A DNA stretch of 64,000 bases from an uncultured bacterium. Lineage in GTDB: Bacteria > Desulfobacterota > Deferrimicrobia > Deferrimicrobiales > Deferrimicrobiaceae. Positions 1 through 9,415 of the stretch are shown here, one piece after another. Numbering within the stretch: the stretch's first letter is position 1; every line of letters begins with the position of its first letter. The DNA is taken from positions 4,647 to 68,646 of the forward strand of contig CAVXQW010000003.1 in the NCBI GenBank assembly GCA_963764045.1, written 5' to 3'. The notes beneath the pieces are model-generated. The model searched no databases, was not told the DNA's origin, and worked only from the letters and a program-made list of their open reading frames with translations. Both the position numbers and the translations under genes were made by a program.

Positions 1-1
1 T

Positions 2-272
2 CGGAAAGATGAAGCCGAAGCTGAACCAGAGCCTATAGCCGAAGCCGAGCCTCCGTCGGAAGCCAAAGCCGATCAAAAACCTGAAGCGAAAGCCAACCCT
101 CTGCCAAAAGCCAAAAAAGAGCCTTAGCCTGATGCCAAAGCCAAGACACCATCCGATTTGACGCCGCAGATCGCCAAGCGAGCCGATGAACTCTATGAGG
201 AGCGAGGTCGAGCGAGTTCAGGACCGGGGGGAGACGGAGCGGGAGATACGGAAATATGAACGCCACAAATAA
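2..272 (+). pseudogene. 3' end of a gene: Pro/Ala/Glu/Lys-rich repeat linker plus DUF2934-like tail, interrupted by an in-frame TAG and a frameshift
   Basis: Frame 2 reads RKDEAEAEPEPIAEAEPPSEAKADQKPEAKANPLPKAKKEP*(TAG 125-127)PDAKAKTPSDLTPQIAKRADELYEERGR; frame 3 continues VQDRGETEREIRKYERHK* (TAA 270-272). Resembles DUF2934 'IAxRAYELYE.RGR...QDW..AE.EI'. Confidence 0.5.
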
Positions 273-314
273 ACAGGAGCAAACAACGCGGTGGGCGTGC
301 CCGAAAGGATGAGC

Positions 315-1194
315 ATGAAAATCAATTCAAAGGATTTCCGTGTGCGGCCCGGAGAAAAAGTCAAACTCAAAGAGTGGCCGACGATTGTGCAGCCCGTTTG
401 CAAGTCGAAGAAGCAATATCAAAACCTGCTGGAAGAACACGTTGAGGCGTTGAGTTCGCTGCAACGCCTTCATTACGCCTCCAGACGGTATGCGTTGCTG
501 CTGATTTTTCAGGGGATGGACGCTGCCGGCAAGGATGGTGCCATCCGGCACGTAATGTCCGGGGTCAATCCGCAAGGCTGTGAGGTTTTCAGTTTCGAAC
601 AGCCGAGCGCCGAAGAACTGAAACACGATTTTCTTTGGCGCACGACCCGTCGTCTGCCGGAACGCGGGCGGATCGGCATCTTCAATCGTTCCTACTATGA
701 GGAGGTTCTTATCGTTCGTGTGCATCCGGAGATTCTCCGCGGTCAAGGCCTTCCGGAAGAGCTGCTCGACGCGGCGACCATTTGGGAGGAGCGGTATCGT
801 TCCATTGTCGACTTGGAGGAACATCTCTACCGTAGCGGCACCCGGATTGTTAAGTTTTTTCTCCACCTGTCGAAGGAGGAGCAGCGAAAGCGATTTCTGG
901 AGCGCATTGATGAGCCGGACAAGAACTGGAAATTCAGCCTATCGGACATTCACGAGAGGAAATACTGGCAGCATTACATGAAGGCTTATGAGGCTTGCCT
1001 GAACGCGACAAGCGTCCCTCACGCGCACTGGTACGTCGTTCCAGCCGATGATAAGGAGAATGCGAGGTTGATTATTTCCCACAATTGTCCTTGATGCGCT
1101 CAATGCACTCAAGATGTCATATCCCAAGACTACCGAGAAACGTCGGCTGGAATTGAAATCCATCCGCAAAACGCTTCAGGAGACAAAATCCTGA
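315..1194 (+). CDS. ppk2: Polyphosphate kinase 2 family protein (frameshift near 1080)
   Basis: Walker [39 protein letters not shown]. After IIS the natural tail [18 protein letters not shown]...ETKS* is in another frame (stop 1192-1194). Confidence 0.88.
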
Positions 1195-1199
1195 CCAAT

Positions 1200-1641
1200 A
1201 TACAACCACAGCAGCGGTATGAAATCGGAATGGTCGGCCTGGGTGTCATGGGGCGCAATCTCGTGCTGAACATGGCCGATCACGGAAATTCCGTGGCCGG
1301 CTACGACAAGGATGCCACCAAAGTGGCGGCGCCAGGCAAGGAGGCCGAGAACCGGGACATCCGCGGTGCGGCGGATATCAAGGAGTTCATCGGCATGCTC
1401 CGCCGACCGCGCGCAATCATGATGCTCGTGCCCGCCGGCGCTCCGGTGGATTCGGTCATCAACGATCTGCTCGCGCACCTCCAGCCGGGCGATCTCATCA
1501 TTGACGGCGGCAACTCCTGCTTCAAAGACACCGACGTGCGCGCCCGCAACCTGATGGCGAAAGGCATTCAATTCCTTGGCGTTGGGGTATCGGGTGGCGA
1601 AGAGGGGGCGCGTCACGGGCCGAGCATCATGCCTGGCGGGC
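1200..1641 (+). pseudogene. gnd: Truncated 6-phosphogluconate dehydrogenase (N-terminal NADP-binding domain only)
   Basis: YEIGMVGLGVMGRNLVLNMADHG...IIDGGNS...GVSGGEEGARHGPSIMPGG, then similarity stops. The likely start position is ATA at 1200. Confidence 0.82.
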
Positions 1642-1696
1642 AGGGTTACCGTGTTGGAAATACGAGGGCCAGGCTCCACAGGAAAGGGGAGCGAAG

Positions 1697-1891
1697 ATGA
1701 AAAGATTAACGATTGTTTTCACAGTTTTGTTTGCTTTTACTATTTCAGCCTTTGCCGAGATGAGCACCGGGCAAGGTAGTGGCATGATGGGTGGTGGTTG
1801 GGGATGGGGAATGAACTCCGGATGGTTTTTTATGATCATTATCGCGATTCTCGTTATTTTTGGCATTGCTTATCTGATGAAACGAAAGTAA
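1697..1891 (+). CDS. Small membrane protein: signal peptide, Gly/Met-rich segment (GMMGGGWGWGM) and one TM helix
   Basis: RBS GGGGAG upstream; MKRLTIVFTVLFAFTISAFA signal-like; C-terminal hydrophobic helix followed by MKRK. Confidence 0.7.
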   Translation: MKRLTIVFTVLFAFTISAFAEMSTGQGSGMMGGGWGWGMNSGWFFMIIIAILVIFGIAYLMKRK

Positions 1892-1928
1892 AAATCTTTA
1901 AGGGATAATGCAGAGGGAGGAGGATCTC

Positions 1929-2306
1929 ATGATGAAAATCCTTGGATGTGCCCTGGTTGTCCTGTTTCTGGGAGCAGCCCCTTTATTGGCCCAGAGTTCC
2001 GAGGGGAACGAATACGGGAAAGGAAAAACACTTTATGGGGACAAATGCCAGTTTTGTCATGGCATTCGGGGAGACGGGAAAGGGCCGGCGGCTGAACCTC
2101 TCCTGGGGCACCCTGCTGACTTCACCGATTCCAAGTTTTGGAAGGAAGACGGAGAGAATGTAATCGAAGATACGATCAAGAAGGGCAAGGAAATGATGCC
2201 GGCATTTAACCTGGAGCCCGATCAAATCAAGGATATCATCCAGTACATGTCTCATACCTTCAAAACAACAACTCGGGAAAACAGTGGAGGGAGGAAAGAA
2301 AAATGA
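1929..2306 (+). CDS. Periplasmic monoheme class I cytochrome c
   Basis: Signal peptide, CQFCH heme motif, G.GDG.GP, distal Met in MMPAF; RBS GGAGG. Confidence 0.9.
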   Translation: MMKILGCALVVLFLGAAPLLAQSSEGNEYGKGKTLYGDKCQFCHGIRGDGKGPAAEPLLGHPADFTDSKFWKEDGENVIEDTIKKGKEMMPAFNLEPDQIKDIIQYMSHTFKTTTRENSGGRKEK

Positions 2307-3715
2307 TCTGGAAAAAACCCGGAAACATATTCTTTCTTCTCATCGGTCTCGCGTTATTGCTGCTTTTGCCGTTCAACAGCGCCCAGGCAGTACCGAGTTT
2401 CGCGCGCCAAACAGGTATGGCGTGTAATGAATGTCATACCATATTCCCGGAATTGACGCCGTTTGGGAGGATCTTCAAACTCGGTGGTTATGTGATGAGC
2501 AAGAGCGGCAGGCAATATGAATTCCCTCCGCCGTTGGCGGGTATGGCGCAGGTATCCTATACAGACTCCAAGGGACTGACTTCCGGGGTTGCTCCTTTTG
2601 ATGCCTCCGACAGGGCAACCGACAGATTCAATCTGCCGCAGCAGTTGAGCTTGTTTTACGGGGGCCGAATTTACGATCAGGCAGGAGCATTTGTGCAGGC
2701 CACCTACGATGGTACCAGCGACTCGTTTTTCCTGGACTTGACGGACATACGGTATGCAAACAACACCATTGTGTGGGACAAAAACCTGATCTACGGGCTG
2801 ACTATTAATAATAGTCCGTCCGTACAAGATGTCTGGAATACCACTCCCGTGTGGGGGTTCCCTTATGCATCTTCAAGCGTTGCCGCGACTCCCGCCGCTG
2901 GTCCGATCATCGACGGGGCGTTGGACCAGCAGGTCGGCGGCATCGGCGCCTATGCCTACTGGAACAATCTGATCTACCTGGAAGGGACCGTCTACCGCAC
3001 AACCAAGACCGGTATTACCAGGCCATTGGGCGTTGGCACCCCTACGGAACAGGTAGTGGACGGTGCAGCCCCTTACTGGCGCTTGGCATTGGAACAACGG
3101 TGGAAAAACCACTTCTTTACCGTAGGCACGTACGGCATGCAGGCGGATATCTTCCCCTCCGGCAATAGCAGTGGACCGACAGACCGCTTTACGGACATCG
3201 CCTTTGACGCTCAATATCAGTACATGGGGACGATTGAACCGGAACAGATGCCAGAGGGTATGCAAAAGGCAGGCGAACCTCCGGAGAAAGCGAACAAGCA
3301 TATCGTTACGGCGCACGCCACCTGGATTCATGAGAACCAGGACTGGAACGCGAGCTTTCCCCTCGGGAATACGGCAAACTCCTCTGACTTCCTGAATACA
3401 TTCAAATTGAACGTGAATTATAACTACAGGAGTTTTTTGGGCGATATGGGGGGATCGCTAGGCTATTTTTCCACAACCGGCAAAACAGACCCGCTGCTCT
3501 ATTCTTCCAACCCGGTTGATGGAAGCAGAACAGGCAGTCCCAACAGTGACGGCTTTATTCTTGAGGCGGATTATCTGCCGTTGCAAATGATCAAGATTTC
3601 TCTTCAGTACACAATCTATAACAAGTTCAACGGTGCCAGTTCGAACTATGACGGATTCGGCAGGGATGCTTCCGACAACAACACTCTCTACGCGCTGGTT
3701 TGGGTTATGCTTTAA
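2303..3715 (+). CDS. cyc2: Cyc2-type fused monoheme cytochrome c / outer-membrane porin
   Basis: Signal peptide then AVPSFARQTGMACNECHTIFPELTPFGRIFKLGGY (Cyc2 N-terminal signature), followed by an aromatic-rich beta-barrel-like region ending YALVWVML. Confidence 0.85.
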   Translation: MIWKKPGNIFFLLIGLALLLLLPFNSAQAVPSFARQTGMACNECHTIFPELTPFGRIFKLGGYVMSKSGRQYEFPPPLAGMAQVSYTDSKGLTSGVAPFDASDRATDRFNLPQQLSLFYGGRIYDQAGAFVQATYDGTSDSFFLDLTDIRYANNTIVWDKNLIYGLTINNSPSVQDVWNTTPVWGFPYASSSVAATPAAGPIIDGALDQQVGGIGAYAYWNNLIYLEGTVYRTTKTGITRPLGVGTPTEQVVDGAAPYWRLALEQRWKNHFFTVGTYGMQADIFPSGNSSGPTDRFTDIAFDAQYQYMGTIEPEQMPEGMQKAGEPPEKANKHIVTAHATWIHENQDWNASFPLGNTANSSDFLNTFKLNVNYNYRSFLGDMGGSLGYFSTTGKTDPLLYSSNPVDGSRTGSPNSDGFILEADYLPLQMIKISLQYTIYNKFNGASSNYDGFGRDASDNNTLYALVWVML

Positions 3716-3753
3716 TCCATGCGTTTTATGAAATGTTGAATGGAGTACATGCG

Positions 3754-4140
3754 ATGAGTTATTACTTCACCAAAATAGTAAAGGCTTCTTTTGACGAGGC
3801 CGTAGCAAAGGTAACCGCCGAATTGAAAGAAGAAGGCTTCGGCATCCTGACCGAAATTGATGTCAAAGAGACCCTGAAGAAAAAATTGAATGTAGATTTT
3901 CGGCGTTACAAAATCCTGGGAGCCTGCAACCCCCCGTCTGCGTACAAGGCTCTAACGGCAGAAAATAAAATCGGCACCATGCTTCCCTGCAACGTAATCG
4001 TGCAAGAGGTTTCAGACGGGCAGGTTGAGGTCACGGCGATCGACCCTCTGGCTTCCATGCAGGCAGTCGATAATCCTGCGTTAAAGGAGATTGCTTCCGA
4101 AATCAGCAACAAGTTGAAAAAGGTTATCGGCAGGGTATAA
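3754..4140 (+). CDS. DUF302 domain protein
   Basis: GFGILTEIDVKETLKKKL, YKILGACNP, GTMLPCNVIV motifs. Confidence 0.9.
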   Translation: MSYYFTKIVKASFDEAVAKVTAELKEEGFGILTEIDVKETLKKKLNVDFRRYKILGACNPPSAYKALTAENKIGTMLPCNVIVQEVSDGQVEVTAIDPLASMQAVDNPALKEIASEISNKLKKVIGRV

Positions 4141-4170
4141 GAATTATTCATTAAAAATGCATTATGCTTT

Positions 4171-4204
4171 CCCCGTGGGGGATCGAGTCCCCCCTTCGGC
4201 GCCA
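4171..4204 (+). mobile_element. att-like site: degenerate 3' half of a tRNA (Leu-type)
   Basis: GGGGG-ATCGAGT-CCCCC (T-arm with T>A in the loop) + CTTCGGC acceptor strand + G + CCA; no 5' half upstream. Confidence 0.65.
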
Positions 4205-4830
4205 TAAGAAAAGACGGTACGTCCAGCCCAAGAACTTTTGAAATCCCTGATTCTGATCGTGGCAATTCGTAATGTCTGAGATCAATCGAAGCATCCGTTC
4301 AGTAACTGGGGAACGGTGGGCCACGTTGGGTGTGGCCAGGATTTCCTCCCGGATCTCCGGTGTTAGCCGCAGCATTCCCAAGATTTGAGTCACCCTGGCG
4401 CGGGTGATTCCTTCTCTGCGAGCGATGTCAGCTTGGCTGGCGACATTTCCGGACTCTAGGTGAGCTTGCCACTCGATGGAGGGCCCCGATGTTACCGTAT
4501 TCGAAGGCCTCCTTAGGACCCCGAGGGGGATCTCGACGGTTTGTTCGCGGTAGGGGGCCACAGGCGCGCCACTGTGGCCATCTTGAGCGAGATGGACGAT
4601 CCGGAAGTATATCTCTGGCTCGACCCATCCCGGGCGGGTTCGCAAACTGGCACATTTGGGGAGCCAGATGTTACTGTCTGCAAACCATTGAGATTTGGTT
4701 TCCCATACCAGACCTCGATGGTTTGTCGACGATGAATAAGCACCTTCTTCACCAGCCGGTGGAGGAGGTGCTTTTTAAATTGGGGTTTTGTCCCGAACGC
4801 TTCGTCCCGGCGCACTTGAAATTGACGGTT
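4205..4830 (-). pseudogene. Remnants of a site-specific recombinase C-terminus and an associated small HTH ORF
   Basis: Fragments KKHLLHRLVKKVLIHRRQTIEVWYG and HLESGNVASQADIARREGITRARVTQILGMLRLTPEI (HTH-like) in different frames; no catalytic N-terminus. Confidence 0.45.
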
Positions 4831-4880
4831 TAGTCGGCGATGATCCATTACGGGTTCGGCTGACCACTCCGGAGGAAACC

Positions 4881-5858
4881 TTGGCGCATCCCGGTTCCAG
4901 ACCCTGGGTTGGAAACTTCTGTACGCCATTATTGGCGGTGTTACTGGCGGTGACAGGCTGCTCGGGGAAGCAGCCCCCCGGCTATCAGGGATATGTCGAG
5001 GCGGAGTTCGTGCATGTGTCGTCCTCCTTGGCGGGACGTCTGGATCGTCTGCCGGTGACCCGGGGACAACGGATTTCGGCCGGGACGCCGTTGTTCGCCC
5101 TCGAATCGGAGAACGAATCCGCCGCGCGACGTCAGGCGCGGCAACAGTTATCCGCCGCGGAAGCCCAGCTCAAGGACCTTCGTGCGGGCAAACGCCCGCA
5201 GGAGCTTGACGTCATCCGGGCGCAAATTGCGGAGGCGGTCGCGGAAGAAAAGAGGTCCGCCGCCGATCTGGCTCGCGACGAAGCCCAATACAAGGCGGGA
5301 GGGATTTCCAACGCCCGCCTGGACGAGACGCTCGCCCGGGCGAAATCCGATGCGGCGCGGATCCGTGAGCTGAGGAGCCAGCTCGATGTCGCAGGCCTGC
5401 CGGCCCGGGAGGAACAGATCAAATCCCAGGCCGCCAATGTTGCCGCGGCCCGCGCCGCCCTGGAACAGGCCGAGTGGAAACTGCACCAGAAGGCGGTCGC
5501 CGCCTCCGCTTCCGGGCTGGTGTTCGATACCCTGTACCGGGAAGGCGAATGGGTGCAGGCAGGGAGCCCGGTGGTTCGCCTCCTGCCGCCGGGAAACATC
5601 AAGGTGCGTTTCTTCGTTCCGGAAACCGTCGTCGGCGCACTGCCCGTGGGGAAAGAGGTCGTCCTCCATTGCGACGGCTGCCCGGCGGATCTCCCGGCGA
5701 AGGTCACCTATGTTTCGACGGAATCGGAATATACCCCTCCGGTCATCTACAGCAACGAGACCCGGTCCAAGCTTGTTTACATGATCGAGGCTCGCCCCTC
5801 CGCGGACAAGGCCTTCGACCTTCACCCCGGACAACCCGTCGAGGTAAGGATCCGTTGA
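4881..5858 (+). CDS. HlyD family efflux periplasmic adaptor (lipoprotein)
   Basis: Lipobox-like VTGC, YQGYVEAE, coiled coil, EYTPPVIYSNETRSKLVY, LHPGQPVEV; TTG start after GGAGG. Confidence 0.88.
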   Translation: MAHPGSRPWVGNFCTPLLAVLLAVTGCSGKQPPGYQGYVEAEFVHVSSSLAGRLDRLPVTRGQRISAGTPLFALESENESAARRQARQQLSAAEAQLKDLRAGKRPQELDVIRAQIAEAVAEEKRSAADLARDEAQYKAGGISNARLDETLARAKSDAARIRELRSQLDVAGLPAREEQIKSQAANVAAARAALEQAEWKLHQKAVAASASGLVFDTLYREGEWVQAGSPVVRLLPPGNIKVRFFVPETVVGALPVGKEVVLHCDGCPADLPAKVTYVSTESEYTPPVIYSNETRSKLVYMIEARPSADKAFDLHPGQPVEVRIR

Positions 5859-6790
5859 GCGACGAATACGCCATCGACGTCAGCGGGCTGAACAAACACT
5901 TCGGCGACAAGCACGTCGTGAAGGATGTTTCCCTGCAGGTGCGGCGCGGAGAAATTCTCGGGTTCCTCGGCCCGAACGGCAGCGGGAAAACCACCACCAT
6001 CCGCATGATGTGCGGCCTGCTCAAGCCCGACTCGGGGAGTGGGACCTGCCTGGGTTACGACATTCGGCGCGACAGCGCGCAGATCAAGCGCCATGTCGGC
6101 TACATGACCCAGAAGTTCTCCTACTGGGACGATCTGACCATCCGCGAGAATCTGAATTTCGTGGCCCGCATGTACGGCATGCCCGATCGTCTCGAGGCGG
6201 TGGATCGGACCCTGAAGGGGCTTGGCTTGACGGAGAGGGCGAATCAGCTGACCGGAGCGCTTTCCGGCGGCTGGAAACAGCGGCTGGCACTGGCCGCCTG
6301 CCTGCTGCACGATCCGGAACTGCTGCTCCTGGACGAGCCGACGGCGGGAGTCGACCCGGGAGCGCGGCGGGATTTCTGGGAAGAACTCCAACGGCTTTCC
6401 GCCGCCGGCATCTCCGTGCTGGTGAGCACCCATTACATGGACGAGGCGGAGCGGTGTCACAAGCTTGCGTACATCGCCGACGGCAGATTGCTGGCGAAAG
6501 GGACGTCCATGGAGGTGATTGCGGCCCAGGGTTTGGTCACGTGGGCGATCCACGACGGGAACCTCGCGGGCCTGTCCGAGACGCTGCAGAAGCTGCCCGG
6601 GGTGGAACAGACCGTCCTTTTCGGCGCGATGCTTCACGTGAGCGGGAGAGACGGGGATCTGCTGGAACGGACGCTCCGCGCGACGGCGGCCGGCACGGTC
6701 TTCCGGATGGAAAAGGTGGCTACGAGCCTCGAAGATGTTTTCATCTACAAGATGAAACAGTACGCCGATTCTACCGGGCCCGGGACATGA
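5855..6790 (+). CDS. ABC transporter ATP-binding protein (YbhF-like)
   Basis: GPNGSGKTT, LSGGWKQR, LLLDEPT, STHYMDEAE. Confidence 0.92.
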   Translation: MSDEYAIDVSGLNKHFGDKHVVKDVSLQVRRGEILGFLGPNGSGKTTTIRMMCGLLKPDSGSGTCLGYDIRRDSAQIKRHVGYMTQKFSYWDDLTIRENLNFVARMYGMPDRLEAVDRTLKGLGLTERANQLTGALSGGWKQRLALAACLLHDPELLLLDEPTAGVDPGARRDFWEELQRLSAAGISVLVSTHYMDEAERCHKLAYIADGRLLAKGTSMEVIAAQGLVTWAIHDGNLAGLSETLQKLPGVEQTVLFGAMLHVSGRDGDLLERTLRATAAGTVFRMEKVATSLEDVFIYKMKQYADSTGPGT

Positions 6791-7929
6791 CTCCTTTTGA
6801 CGGGTTTTCCCTTTCGCGGTGGTGGAGCATTATCCTCAAGGAATTTCTCCAGCTCCGGCGGGACCGCCTCACCTTCGCCATGATCGTCGGCATGCCCATC
6901 GTGCAACTGACGCTGTTCGGATACGCCATCAATACCGACCCCAAGCACATGCCCACGGCGATCATCGCCGCGGACCACAGCGAAATGACCCGCACGATGA
7001 TCGTCACGATGAAGTCATCCGGATACTTCGACATCGTCGGAGAGCTGCCGGACGAGGAGGCGGGCCGGGCGGCGCTGGCGCGCGGCGAGGTGCAATTCAT
7101 TCTGAACATCCCCGCCGGGTTCACCCGCAGCGTGCTGCGCGGCGAACGCCCTGCCCTGCTGGTCGAGGCGGACGCCACGGACCCGATGGCGACCGGAATG
7201 GCGCTGGCTTCGGTCGACCAGCTCGCCCGGTCCGTGACCGCAAAGGATCTGACCGGTCCCCTCGCATCCCTTGCGGGCGGCCAGGCGCCTTTCGAAGTCC
7301 GGGTTCATCGCCTGTACAACCCCGAAGGCATCACCCAATACAACATCATTCCCGGCCTCATGGGCGTCATCCTCACCATGACGATGGTCCTGATGACCGG
7401 ACTTGCCATTACCCGGGAGCTCGAGCGCGGTACGATGGAAAACCTGCTGGCCATGCCGGCGAAACCGGTGGAGGTCATGACCGGGAAGATCGTCCCCTAC
7501 ATCGCCATCGGCCTGGTCCAGTCAACGATCATTATCCTGGCGGCCCGCCTTGCCTTCCGGGTTCCCTTCGCGGGGAGCGTCGTAATGTTGTATGTGGCCG
7601 TGCTGTTCTTCGTGGCCGCCAACCTGACGGTGGGAATCACCATGTCCTCTCTGGCGCAGAACCAGCTGCAGGCCATGCAGATGACATTTTTCTACTTCCT
7701 CCCGAACATCCTGCTTTCCGGCTTCATGTTCCCGTTTCAGGGGATGCCGGCCTGGGCGCGGTTCATCGGGAATCTGCTGCCATTGACCTATTTCAACCGG
7801 TTGTCGCGCGGCATTTTCCTCAAAGGAAACGGCTGGTTGGATCTCTGGCCGAACATATGGCCCTTGATGGTCTTCACCGTTGTCGTCATGGCGATTGCGG
7901 TGAAGTTCTATCGCCGGACCCTCGATTGA
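6787..7929 (+). CDS. ABC-2 type transporter permease
   Basis: KEFLQLRRDR, ITRELERGTMENLL, ILLSGFMFP, multiple TM helices. Confidence 0.92.
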   Translation: MTPFDGFSLSRWWSIILKEFLQLRRDRLTFAMIVGMPIVQLTLFGYAINTDPKHMPTAIIAADHSEMTRTMIVTMKSSGYFDIVGELPDEEAGRAALARGEVQFILNIPAGFTRSVLRGERPALLVEADATDPMATGMALASVDQLARSVTAKDLTGPLASLAGGQAPFEVRVHRLYNPEGITQYNIIPGLMGVILTMTMVLMTGLAITRELERGTMENLLAMPAKPVEVMTGKIVPYIAIGLVQSTIIILAARLAFRVPFAGSVVMLYVAVLFFVAANLTVGITMSSLAQNQLQAMQMTFFYFLPNILLSGFMFPFQGMPAWARFIGNLLPLTYFNRLSRGIFLKGNGWLDLWPNIWPLMVFTVVVMAIAVKFYRRTLD

Positions 7930-7939
7930 GGGAGGGACC

Positions 7940-9415
7940 ATGGTGAAATCCGCCGTGAACGGGGCGCTCGGGATGCTCGTCCCGGCCGTCATCATCGGAA
8001 TGCTGGCGGGTTGCGCCGTCGGACCGGATTTCCGGCATCCGGAACCGCCCTCGTCATCGACCTATACGGCGGGTGCTCAACCTTCGGGGACCGTCGCCGC
8101 GAAAGGCCCCGGCGGAACGAAGCAACGGTTCGATACCGGAGCGGATATCCCGTCGGAGTGGTGGTCGCTGTTCCGGTCCGACTCCCTCGACCGGCTGGTC
8201 CGCATCGCGCTGGAAGAGAGCCCGACGCTTGCGCAAGCCAGTGCACGACTTACGCAGGCACGGGAGGATTTCAATGCCCGGGCCGGTGCCACGCAATATC
8301 CCGCGGTGGATGCGGGGATATCGGCCACACGCCAGAAGTTGAACCTGGCTTCGTTGGGAGTACCGAACGTTCCGGAAACCGGCCCGTTCACCCTGTACAA
8401 CGCGTCGGTTTCCGTTTCGTACGCGCTTGACCTGTTCGGGGGGAACCGCCGCGCACTCGAGGGTCTCGGGGCCCAGGTCGATTACCGGAATTTCGAACTG
8501 GAGGCGGCGAGACGGACAGTTGCCGCGAATGTCGTGAACGCGGCCATCCGGCAGGCGTCGCTGCGAGCGCGGATCGGGATAGCGCAGGATCTCCTGGAAG
8601 CGCAAGGCCGGCAGTTCACCATCACCGAAGATCGGTACAAGGCGGGAGGCGTATCCGCGCTGGACGTCCGGAACCAGAACCTGCTGCTGGACCAGACGCG
8701 GGCGTTGCTGCCGCCGCTGGAACGTCAGCTCGCCCAGGTAACCCATCAATTGGCGGTGTACCTGGGCCGGGAACCTTCCGAGGCGGCGATCGACGGGTTC
8801 GACCTGGACAGTCTCCATCTTCCGGAAGAGGTGCCTCTGAGCCTCCCCTCGTCGCTAGCGAGAAGGAGGCCGGATATCCGCGCCGCGGAAGCCCTCTGGC
8901 ATCAGGCATGCGCCAATGTGGGCGTGGCAACCGCCGATCTCTATCCCAAGATCACGATAAGCGGTAGCCTCGGTTCGCAAAGAACAAGCTCCGGCGATCT
9001 TCTGAGCGGGACGAATGTCTGGAGCATCGCCGGAAATCTCATGCAGCCGATCTTCCATGGCGGCGAATTGCGGGCGCGGAAACGGTCGGCCGTCGCGGCT
9101 TACGATGAGGCGGCCGCTGCGTACAGGCAGACCGTGTTGCAGGGGCTGCAGGAGGTCGCCGACACCCTGTCCGCCCTCGACAAGGATGCCCGAACGCTTC
9201 AGGCGCGTGCCGATGGCGCCGAGCATGCCCGGGTCGGTTATGAAATCGCCCGGCAACAATACCTGCTCGGCGGCATCAGTCACCTGGCTCTTCTCGATGC
9301 CCAGCGTCAACTTCTGCAATCGGAGTTCGACAGGGTGCAGGCCCAGGCCGACCGGTACGCCGATACCGCCGCGTTGCTGCAGGCGCTCGGGGGCGGATGG
9401 CGGGACCAAAGATAG
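7940..9415 (+). CDS. Outer membrane efflux factor (NodT/TolC family lipoprotein)
   Basis: LAGCAVGPDF lipobox, PSSLARRRPDIRAAE, C-terminal QALGGGW. Confidence 0.92.
   Translation: MVKSAVNGALGMLVPAVIIGMLAGCAVGPDFRHPEPPSSSTYTAGAQPSGTVAAKGPGGTKQRFDTGADIPSEWWSLFRSDSLDRLVRIALEESPTLAQASARLTQAREDFNARAGATQYPAVDAGISATRQKLNLASLGVPNVPETGPFTLYNASVSVSYALDLFGGNRRALEGLGAQVDYRNFELEAARRTVAANVVNAAIRQASLRARIGIAQDLLEAQGRQFTITEDRYKAGGVSALDVRNQNLLLDQTRALLPPLERQLAQVTHQLAVYLGREPSEAAIDGFDLDSLHLPEEVPLSLPSSLARRRPDIRAAEALWHQACANVGVATADLYPKITISGSLGSQRTSSGDLLSGTNVWSIAGNLMQPIFHGGELRARKRSAVAAYDEAAAAYRQTVLQGLQEVADTLSALDKDARTLQARADGAEHARVGYEIARQQYLLGGISHLALLDAQRQLLQSEFDRVQAQADRYADTAALLQALGGGWRDQR

Follow-up and report, generated by a model that had tools for sequence, protein, structure and literature searches.

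Which protein accepts electrons from Cyc2 in the periplasm, and how much does a cyc2 gene reveal about the metabolism of its host? Cyc2 is the main candidate marker of microbial iron oxidation, most of its homologues are unverified, and the abstract of one 2026 preprint states that the periplasmic electron path from Cyc2 is unknown. Both questions are raised by a Cyc2 locus in the DNA of an uncultured bacterium of the family Deferrimicrobiaceae (GenBank assembly GCA_963764045.1). The window, by which we mean the whole 64,000-nucleotide stretch analysed, corresponds to G000:C3:4647-68646, where G000 is the source genome (18 contigs, 2.73 Mb, 64.3% guanine plus cytosine (GC), completeness 75%, contamination 2.6%) and all other G numbers are genomes of relatives. 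A cassette at window positions 1697-4140 holds genes for a small peptide, a cytochrome c, a 470-residue Cyc2-family protein and a DUF302 protein. We propose that this cassette is a horizontally acquired operon in which the cytochrome c and the Cyc2-family protein form a two-protein electron conduit with Fe(II) as its substrate. The probability that we assign to this entire statement is about 0.6, whereas the narrower claim that the locus encodes a Cyc2-family conduit of horizontal origin is, in our view, highly probable.

The open reading frames (ORFs) and the sequence place all four genes on the plus strand in the order given above, at the location that an earlier note on this DNA had indicated (Table 1). 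Beyond its signal-like N-terminus, the 64-residue peptide carries a Met/Gly/Trp-rich stretch that reads EMSTGQGSGMMGGGWGWGMNSGW, then a hydrophobic helix, then KRK. No Pfam or NCBIfam family matches this peptide, which groups with clusters of unnamed 64-68-residue proteins in a protein atlas (score 0.94). The frame of the cytochrome c is listed from 1908, but the ATG at 1929 is its likely start because a ribosome-binding site, GGGAGGAGGA, stands before it and the resulting 125 residues equal the length of the sister-genome copy. This protein exceeds the curated cut-offs of PF00034 and PF13442 (43.3 and 43.4 bits) and combines the hallmarks of a class I c-type cytochrome, namely a single CXXCH (CQFCH), a distal Met, a putative export signal to the periplasm (a signal-like N-terminus by direct reading) and a domain of about 100 residues. 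Its C40, C43, H44, M90 and W71 are invariant among 32 partner sequences, as expected of a His/Met cytochrome, and Met90 is the likely sixth haem ligand. The stop codon of the cytochrome gene (TGA, 2304-2306) overlaps the start codon of the Cyc2-family gene (ATG, 2303-2305) in the sequence ATGA, so that the translational coupling claimed in the earlier note can be read directly. The true start of the DUF302 frame is ATG 3754 rather than TTG 3700. Its product scores 91.5 bits against PF03625 (cut-off 23) and finds the Protein Data Bank (PDB) entries 1j3m (1.8e-25) and 1q9u (1.3e-15).

By its sequence and predicted fold, the 470-residue protein has every feature by which Keffer et al. (2021, PMC8406198) define Cyc2 in their text. 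Specifically, that definition comprises a signal peptide, one CXXCH, the motif AxPxFAR[Q/K][T/Y] with FAR five residues ahead of CXXCH, PxL beginning four residues behind it, a length of at least 365 residues and a 16-strand porin. In the protein encoded here, direct reading gives the signal peptide MIWKKPGNIFFLLIGLALLLLLPFNSAQA followed by VPS, and an AlphaFold2 (AF2) model places a helix at residues 6-19 with low confidence at 20-29; the N-terminal region reads ...NSAQA/VPSFARQTGMACNECHTIFPELTPFGRIFKLGGY... The upstream motif is A29-V-P-S-F-A-R-Q-T37, after which G, M and A lead to C41 of CNECH (41-45), the sole CXXCH of the protein, and the downstream motif is H45-T-I-F-P49-E-L51. The complete signature is AVPSFARQT-GMA-CNECH-TIF-PEL-TPFGRIFKLGGY. 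Across a 42-sequence alignment that reaches down to 46% identity, P31, Q36, C41, C44, H45, P49, L51, G55, R56, F58 and K59 are invariant.

The predicted fold agrees with this assignment. The domain order is a signal peptide, a haem domain at about 30-70 and a 16-strand beta-barrel interrupted by an insertion at about 309-329. The AF2 model (predicted local distance difference test, pLDDT, 85.2; predicted template modelling score, pTM, 0.83) consists of a small helical N-terminal domain and a barrel, whose 17 strand elements according to DSSP count as 16 strands when 78-88 and 93-97 are taken as one. When the model is compared with the PDB by Foldseek, 174 entries match at E<=0.001, led exclusively by 16-strand porins (OmpF, OmpT, chitoporin). 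OprP (2o4v), the fold reported for Cyc2 by Keffer et al. in the text of PMC8406198, stands at rank 26, and the E values of OmpF, OmpT and OprP are about 3e-7 to 2e-6. At the sequence level the protein matches no family in Pfam or NCBIfam, neither of which holds a Cyc2 model, and a PDB sequence search yields only superantigen matches at chance level (E 0.02-0.05) and no Cyc2 relative. Homologues are nevertheless abundant, with 7021 of 8000 scored candidates at E<=0.001. Proteins from Ralstonia, one of the genera that the published Cyc2 data set includes according to its text, are 45% identical across the full length. Published sequence criteria and the predicted fold therefore support membership in the Cyc2 family, and the signature and beta-barrel that the earlier note had recognised both hold up.

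The insertion at about 309-329 (window about 3227-3289) comprises 21 residues and marks a subclade at 69% identity or more. In most close relatives it is rich in Met, His and Glu, for example MQEHMQMDGEH, whereas the version encoded here, TIEPEQMPEGMQKAGEPPEKAN, has two Met and no His. It is predicted to be disordered (pLDDT 41-44) and, judging from the model, should lie in a periplasmic turn. The Cyc2 clade to which the protein belongs has four members (L050, L051, L078, L089) on one Thermodesulfovibrionales chromosome, OY970295.1; three of these copies have an upstream cytochrome c, and one is apparently interrupted (two pieces in L089).

The pairing of cytochrome c and Cyc2 extends well beyond this genome. 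From 445 confirmed relatives in genome contigs, 79 Cyc2 loci were kept, and 46 of them have a homologue of the cytochrome c upstream of Cyc2 on the same strand, ending -60 to +400 nucleotides from the Cyc2 start; some of the loci that lack the partner have no upstream sequence. In a quick IQ-TREE phylogeny of 77 rows, from which two loci with short or interrupted matches were left out, all 46 paired loci fall outside a 17-row clade dominated by Pseudomonadota. Because none of the 46 belongs to that clade, the pairing marks the other one, which has 60 rows (Shimodaira-Hasegawa-like approximate likelihood ratio test, SH-aLRT, 99). As judged from these gene neighbourhoods, the conserved unit is the cytochrome c together with Cyc2.

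A structural prediction of the complex passes its controls. When mature Cyc2 (30-470) and mature cytochrome c (22-125) are modelled together, the interaction prediction score from aligned errors (ipSAE) is 0.62 (0.61, 0.63 and 0.62 in separate runs), whereas the best of three controls scores 0.00. The partner has a pLDDT of at least 75, and at least 92% of the contacts are common to the runs. Of 80 solved complexes, 58 reach the mark that this complex passes, as do 2 of 110 mismatched pairs; these counts apply only roughly because our own alignments were used. Moreover, since the PDB holds no relative of Cyc2, the pass is not the recall of a solved complex. The interface on Cyc2 includes residues 37-39, 43, 52-58, 61, 65-69 and 71 on the haem-site side and the short barrel turns 125, 154-163, 219-222, 266-269 and 311-314; the first residues of the insertion thereby touch the cytochrome c. 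The cytochrome c contributes residues 35-59 and 89-99, which surround its Met90 and haem site. From the alternation of these turns with long loops in the strand list, we infer that they face the periplasm. The two proteins are thus predicted to bind each other with their haem regions at the periplasmic face, and the minimal conduit envisaged in the earlier note gains from both the conserved pairing and the model.

In what we consider the most likely mechanism, Fe2+, the most probable soluble reductant, would reach the Cyc2 haem through the pore and reduce it there. The electron would then pass from this haem to the cytochrome c, docked haem edge to haem edge on the periplasmic face of the barrel, and the cytochrome c would hand it on to an oxidase or reductase of the host. 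For this final step the source genome offers a bd oxidase and two loci for haem-copper oxidases as candidates, and it also contains 22 stop-to-stop frames with at least four CXXCH motifs, the richest of which has 16. The substrate, the direction of electron flow, the link to a host oxidase and the expression of the conduit are all points that we infer. The Fe(II) reading is supported by two precedents: the Cyc2 of Mariprofundus, which oxidises Fe(II) and has a potential of 208 mV according to the text of PMC8406198, and a Cluster-3-type Cyc2 from a metagenome-assembled genome (MAG) of Nitrospirota, which oxidised Fe(II) in E. coli according to the text of PMC13647500.

A wider proposal can be made for the large Cyc2 clade that includes members from Nitrospirota, Thermodesulfobacteriota, Aminicenantes, Bacteroidota and Acidobacteriota. 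In these organisms, the first periplasmic electron acceptor might be a dedicated 12-kDa monohaem cytochrome c, encoded immediately upstream and stably docked haem to haem on the periplasmic face of the barrel, such that the pair would be a self-sufficient, horizontally mobile conduit in which the subclade-specific Met/His-rich loop serves docking or gating. We advance this idea tentatively and would place it at less than even odds. If it is true, any host with a periplasmic cytochrome c oxidase or reductase could use the two-gene conduit as a 'plug-in'. No description of a dedicated monohaem partner for Cyc2 was found in the main texts searched, which is not proof that none has been published.

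Several observations weigh against the proposed Fe(II) conduit as a whole. The nearest Cyc2 relatives are mostly anaerobes that are not known iron oxidisers, and the function of Cyc2 is described in the text of PMC8406198 as least certain outside Cluster 1. Because the host genus is uncultured and rich in multihaem cytochromes, another substrate or another direction of electron flow is possible. The score of the complex is model confidence rather than a measurement. A promoter scan upstream returned 3 sites where 3.0 are expected by chance, none of them upstream of the peptide. The cytochrome c and Cyc2 pair is dispensable, as it is repeatedly deleted in relatives. Finally, the assembly has many frameshifts, no independent read or contig spans the junction at 1641/1642 on the left of the cassette in four public sequencing runs, whose gaps in coverage are uninformative, and no public run contains more than 13% of the sampled words. 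No RNA run was listed among those that contain them, which counts neither for nor against expression.

The relatives and the multihaem cytochromes bear on the possibility that the pair carries electrons outward, or both ways, in anaerobic extracellular electron transfer. Such a role would suit the 22 multihaem frames of the host, the relatives in Geobacteraceae, Syntrophales, Desulfobacterales and Thermodesulfovibrionales, and one peptide/DUF302 locus that adjoins a PccH-type cytochrome. However, a His/Met class I cytochrome and the measured Cyc2 potential of 208 mV are better suited to electrons from Fe2+ than to the reduction of Fe(III) minerals, and a single buried haem is unable to reach solid acceptors, an argument made by Keffer et al. 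in the text of PMC8406198. The oxidases of the host could also accept the electrons. We consider outward or two-way flow unlikely.

The proposal that the Cyc2 conduit is of foreign origin rests first on composition. The GC content of the cassette is 0.497, compared with 0.643 for the genome, and of 5381 windows of 2.5 kb no more than 0.67% are equally poor in GC. Its tetranucleotide distance is 0.60 where the median is 0.22, a deviation matched in just 0.56% of 2694 windows. Similarly, GC at third codon positions is 0.45-0.63 in the cassette genes and 0.75-0.80 in the flanking host genes. The AT-rich character noted previously is therefore borne out, and in GC content and tetranucleotide use this DNA is an outlier within its genome. 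The stretches of the genome with the strongest deviation, far beyond that of the cassette, lie at C2:162000-167000 and C11:486000-493000 (tetranucleotide distance 0.7-1.05) and are presumably other foreign islands.

The distribution of the cassette is uneven. Full-length copies are present in only 2 of 24 other genomes of the genus (G011 and G012, 88% identity), where they sit elsewhere in the genome between flanks unlike those here, and stubs are present in 2 more. Several other genomes of the genus have only weak matches, at 35-41% identity, to the N-terminal haem region. In the tree, the window Cyc2 clusters with the copies from G011 and G012 (SH-aLRT 99), and these three are nested in a short-branched clade of 15 rows (SH-aLRT 99) labelled Bacteroidota, Nitrospirota, Acidobacteriota, Aminicenantes, Desulfuromonadales and Proteobacteria. 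Where members of the 15-row subclade reside in high-GC hosts, the gene has a GC content of 0.49-0.59 compared with 0.58-0.66 in its surroundings. The taxa found here are not named in the consulted passages of PMC7029218, PMC8406198 and PMC13741234, which bear on the assignment of Cyc2 proteins to clusters. The cassette thus shows both the foreign composition and the patchy distribution among close relatives that characterise a genomic island. Horizontal acquisition, as the earlier note had suggested, is well supported by these sequence comparisons because composition, patchy distribution, nearest relatives in several phyla, a truncated gene on the left and a tRNA-derived scar on the right all point to it.

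Separately, distant Cyc2-like genes occur at G004:C67:990-1331, G003:C262:4508-4699 and G031:C159:1869-2072, in two genomes of the same genus and one of the same class. They show 35-41% identity over the haem region within frames of 428-476 residues, and none of this type was found in the source genome with the 470-residue query. Because such genes exist in relatives, the genus may hold more than one type of fused cytochrome-porin.

The two outer genes of the cassette are much less faithful companions of Cyc2. Among the 79 genome loci, a DUF302 homologue stands beside Cyc2 in 2, one in a sister genome (91% identity) and one in a Geobacteraceae MAG (49%), and a peptide homologue lies within the Cyc2 locus in 3. 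In metagenome contigs, for which the best 80 of 245 confirmed DUF302 relatives were considered, peptide homologues (58-85%) are found upstream of close DUF302 relatives at 8 of 80 loci. The loci recovered represent different states of the cassette. All four genes occur in order at locus L113 (85, 78, 86 and 93% identity), whereas the peptide immediately precedes DUF302 at L108, L109 and L115. At L116 the peptide is followed by a cytochrome c stub of 33 codons and DUF302, and at L110, L112, L114, L122, L123 and L125 a Cyc2 3' stub of 19-41 codons precedes DUF302. Contigs from three public runs likewise fuse window position 1891, 1892, 1904 or 1905 to 3742, 3747 or 3750, which joins the peptide straight to DUF302. 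In the sister species G010 and G007, Cyc2 is reduced to 41 and 22 codons and stands with DUF302 beside an ORF that resembles phosphoketolase when read by eye. These comparisons indicate that in one sublineage the four genes together make up a real and recurring unit from which the cytochrome c and Cyc2 have been excised many times, and that the peptide and DUF302 are separable accessory genes rather than general partners of Cyc2.

Recurrent excision also raises the possibility that the cassette is a decaying passenger without function in its present host. Stubs in G010, G007, L110, L112, L114, L116, L122, L123 and L125 record repeated internal deletions of cytochrome c and Cyc2, the composition of the cassette is unameliorated and debris of mobile elements surrounds it. 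However, all four frames are open and full length even though the assembly breaks frames elsewhere, the conserved haem and motif residues are all retained and the ATGA coupling is intact. A functionless cassette is very unlikely in our estimation.

The accessory genes also figure in a further alternative, in which the conduit is real but is used to handle or detoxify another metal or soluble reductant, such as Cu(I), Mn(II) or humic substances, with the peptide and DUF302 as helpers. The exposed Met/Gly/Trp-rich stretch of the peptide, the Met/His-rich insertion of most close relatives and a host that is not a known iron oxidiser would fit such a function, and the published authors allow additional Cyc2 functions in the text of PMC8406198. 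On the other hand, the insertion encoded in the window has few such residues, the co-occurrence counts with Cyc2 are very low, and the peptide and DUF302 persist without Cyc2 in many relatives, which suggests separate roles. Furthermore, none of 20 neighbouring ORFs scanned belongs to a metal-resistance family; these ORFs were selected for their length at 8 of the 80 loci and came from seven loci, with none from L125. The only families matched near the peptide and DUF302 are ABC1 kinase, PccH, 5'-nucleotidase C-domain, a second DUF302, EamA, beta-propeller, radical SAM and HU-type. We regard a different substrate as improbable. The hint of metal handling that the earlier note drew from DUF302 and the Met/Gly-rich peptide is not supported by these comparisons, and nothing favours such a role except amino-acid composition. 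Two of these neighbourhoods have features of their own. At L113:3422-4493, a second, divergent DUF302 gene and a gene for an EamA-family transporter lie in convergent orientation just downstream of the cassette DUF302. At L109:756-3053, a peptide/DUF302 pair without Cyc2 is closely preceded by genes for an ABC1 kinase and a PccH-type cytochrome c (PF22297, 4e-44).

The proposed Fe(II) conduit can be compared with several known systems. The Cyc2 of Mariprofundus ferrooxydans PV-1, as described in the text of PMC8406198, likewise has a signal peptide, PxFAR[Q/K][T/Y] before a single CXXCH, PxL and more than 365 residues, as well as a 16-strand porin with an OprP/OprO-like fold, which in our case is predicted. 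Unlike the Cyc2 proteins of neutrophilic iron oxidisers, however, the protein studied here has its nearest relatives in anaerobe-rich phyla rather than in Zetaproteobacteria, Gallionellaceae or Chlorobi, and it differs from the PV-1 protein by its subclade-specific insertion of 21 residues, probably in a periplasmic turn, and by a dedicated, overlapping cytochrome c gene upstream. The Cluster-3-type Cyc2 of the Nitrospirota MAG 'Candidatus Mariimomonas ferrooxydans', which we compare by its description in PMC13647500 only, comes from an uncultured lineage of anaerobic sediment and has a deltaproteobacterial closest relative. According to the same text it has 16 strands and one haem, as here, and sped up Fe(II) oxidation in E. 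coli; unlike the situation here, the available passages mention no linked monohaem cytochrome c.

Paired genes are also found in the rus operon of Acidithiobacillus ferrooxidans, in which cyc2 lies beside cyc1 and a periplasmic cytochrome receives the electrons of Cyc2 (PMC5566968, from its text). In that operon, the partner is a dihaem c4 cytochrome, and rusticyanin and an aa3 oxidase are co-encoded, whereas the partner here is a monohaem protein of 125 residues and the rest of the chain is unlinked. MtoAB, PioAB and MtrAB resemble our locus in that genes for a barrel and a c-type cytochrome stand side by side, specify a trans-outer-membrane conduit and are often horizontally mobile. These systems, however, thread a decahaem wire through a 26-strand barrel, whereas the barrel encoded here has 16 strands and a single fused haem, and a soluble monohaem protein is predicted to dock from the periplasm. 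The last gene of the cassette matches the TT1751/DUF302 family (1j3m, 1q9u), which has no assigned function and is not a general neighbour of Cyc2.

The locus is a well-delimited, intact example in an uncultured genus of soil or sediment that has oxidases and many multihaem cytochromes. The more useful aspect is a conserved two-gene module with a confidently predicted docking geometry. Modules of this kind have crossed phyla, come to lie between small genes unrelated to them and been cleanly deleted time and again, and such movement and decay bear on the use of cyc2 presence as evidence of the metabolism of a lineage. It is already known from the text of PMC12442345 that Cyc2 homologues occur in uncultured lineages and that their horizontal transfer is common, so that the general picture of the family is unchanged. 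Two aspects appear to be new, in that no description was found in the main texts searched: the conserved, overlapping monohaem partner with its docking model, and the pattern of nesting and deletion with the peptide and DUF302.

Table 1. Cassette genes and flanking features, in window positions.
Feature	Position	Strand	Basis or detail
64-aa small protein	1697..1891	+	ORF; signal-like N-terminus, Met/Gly/Trp-rich stretch, one C-terminal transmembrane helix, KRK
Periplasmic monohaem class I cytochrome c, 125 aa	1929..2306	+	PF13442 4e-11, PF00034 1e-10
470-aa Cyc2-family fused cytochrome-porin	2303..3715	+	Motifs, AF2 fold, Foldseek
DUF302 protein, 128 aa, TT1751-like fold family	3754..4140	+	PF03625 3e-26; PDB 1j3m, 1q9u
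Accessory long-type gnd, 5' third	1230..1641	+	TIGR00873 positions 4-142 of 467, 3e-53
26-nucleotide junction filler	1642..1667		Between gnd break and cassette-type sequence
Decayed recombinase-like 3' part, ParB-type helix-turn-helix (HTH)	4151..4929	-	Weak PF17762 HTH_ParB, 0.012
tRNA-Leu 3' fragment, att-like scar	4172..4204	+	End of variable arm, T-arm, acceptor 3' strand, CCA
16-bp GC-rich hairpin with T tail	4738..4773	+	At repeat end
Genus-conserved right flank: HlyD-type adaptor, ATP-binding cassette (ABC) ATPase, ABC permease, outer-membrane factor	4815..9415	+	PF13437/PF16576 for adaptor

On the left, the cassette follows a gnd gene that breaks off after its 5' third, and the rest of this gene was not found in the 75%-complete genome. 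G012 and G018 are 92-96% identical to the window up to exactly 1641, where gnd continues in those genomes and is followed by zwf in G012. This gnd is itself accessory, with close copies known from 3 of the 28 genomes that represent the genus, the source included. Contigs from the four public runs that align to the window, all of which come from other organisms, cease matching at 1641 on the gnd side, and others begin only at 1667/1668 on the peptide side.

The quality of the assembly matters for this edge. The gene for a P-type ATPase upstream (C3:1784-4773, reaching window 1-127) is split over three frames. That for PPK2, an ADP-polyphosphate phosphotransferase (window 291-1190), apparently has a frameshift near 1090 that puts its last 30 or so codons in another frame, whereas the G012 homologue runs into gnd as a single frame. 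Contig C7 contains a split COX1 gene for a haem-copper oxidase and a gnd-like gene with stops. The split PPK2 and COX1 genes and the stops in the gnd-like gene suggest many insertion or deletion errors, or pseudogenes. Because of such frameshifts and the unbridged position 1641/1642, the exact join to gnd could be an artefact of assembly, although the genus possesses the cassette whether or not that join is real.

In its full form, this alternative holds that the position of the cassette results from faulty assembly or binning, such that the join at 1641/1642 is chimeric at mobile-element repeats and the truncated gnd is uninformative. In its favour, in addition to the frameshifts, the missing bridge and the incompleteness and contamination of the genome, a contig from a peat metagenome with 2 differences over 1433-1641 goes on as intact gnd, the G012 sequence downstream of gnd maps to contig C2 of the source genome, and a tRNA-Asn that stands ahead of the HlyD operon in two sisters sits on C10 here. 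However, both flanks are typical of the genus, with 94-96% identity to G012 on the left and 86-89% identity to six sisters on the right. Two sister orthologues in the same clade and stubs in two more sisters show that the genus has the cassette regardless, and islands cluster on the right side in the sisters as well. We judge a misplaced cassette to be quite unlikely.

The right edge retains the tRNA scar that the earlier note had seen at the cassette end. This 33-nucleotide fragment is 87% identical over 39 nucleotides to the 3' end of tRNA-Leu(CAG) at C11:107013-107099, occurs as a single copy in the window and was matched in none of 100 shuffles. Contigs of other metagenomes diverge at 4205-4207 or match only from 4171/4172 onward, and because they lose similarity on either side of it, the fragment appears to act as a recombination joint. 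Neither ARAGORN nor Rfam (E<=1, window 1-8000) finds a whole tRNA at this edge, and the fragment has no direct-repeat partner in the window or in C3:1-12000. In place of a whole tRNA at one end and a direct repeat at the other, as in a complete island, there is one fragment only. No recombinase catalytic domain, and thus no intact integrase, is found at 4151-4929, where HTH_ParB (0.012) is the best Pfam match. Because an intact integrase and a second copy of the tRNA fragment are both lacking, the right edge is better described as a scar than as a complete island. A second orphan fragment resembling the 3' end of tRNA-Leu lies at G000:C8:93412-93451, is 85% identical to that in the window and is on a contig without any tRNA called by ARAGORN.

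The recombinase-like debris is a multi-copy repeat, with copies at 81-83% identity on C14 and C10 and many more across 27 sister genomes. The C14 and C10 copies adjoin ORFs that, read by eye, are remnants of IS3- and IS256-type transposases and a recombinase C-terminus. Contigs from three runs lose similarity right behind the end of the hairpin at 4773.

Beyond the repeat, six sister genomes are 86-89% identical to the window from 4815-4867 onward; in this flank the ABC ATPase, the permease and the outer-membrane factor were named by reading ORFs only. In G005 and G012, a variable island of 4-14 kb precedes the HlyD-type operon (G005:C4:127000-140000, L208; G012:C6:181000-198000, L209), starts at tRNA-Asn(GTT) and contains related recombinase debris. 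The comparison of these genomes marks the DNA ahead of this efflux operon as a hot spot of integration. In the source genome, the tRNA-Asn on contig C10 lies beside a short match to window 4741-4789. At the opposite end of the region, the P-type ATPase gene is also present in G012 and G018 at 92-94% identity, and the C-terminal extension of its product consists of KAEPKPEAKA-type repeats and three units of about 73 residues, encoded by direct repeats of 219 nucleotides.

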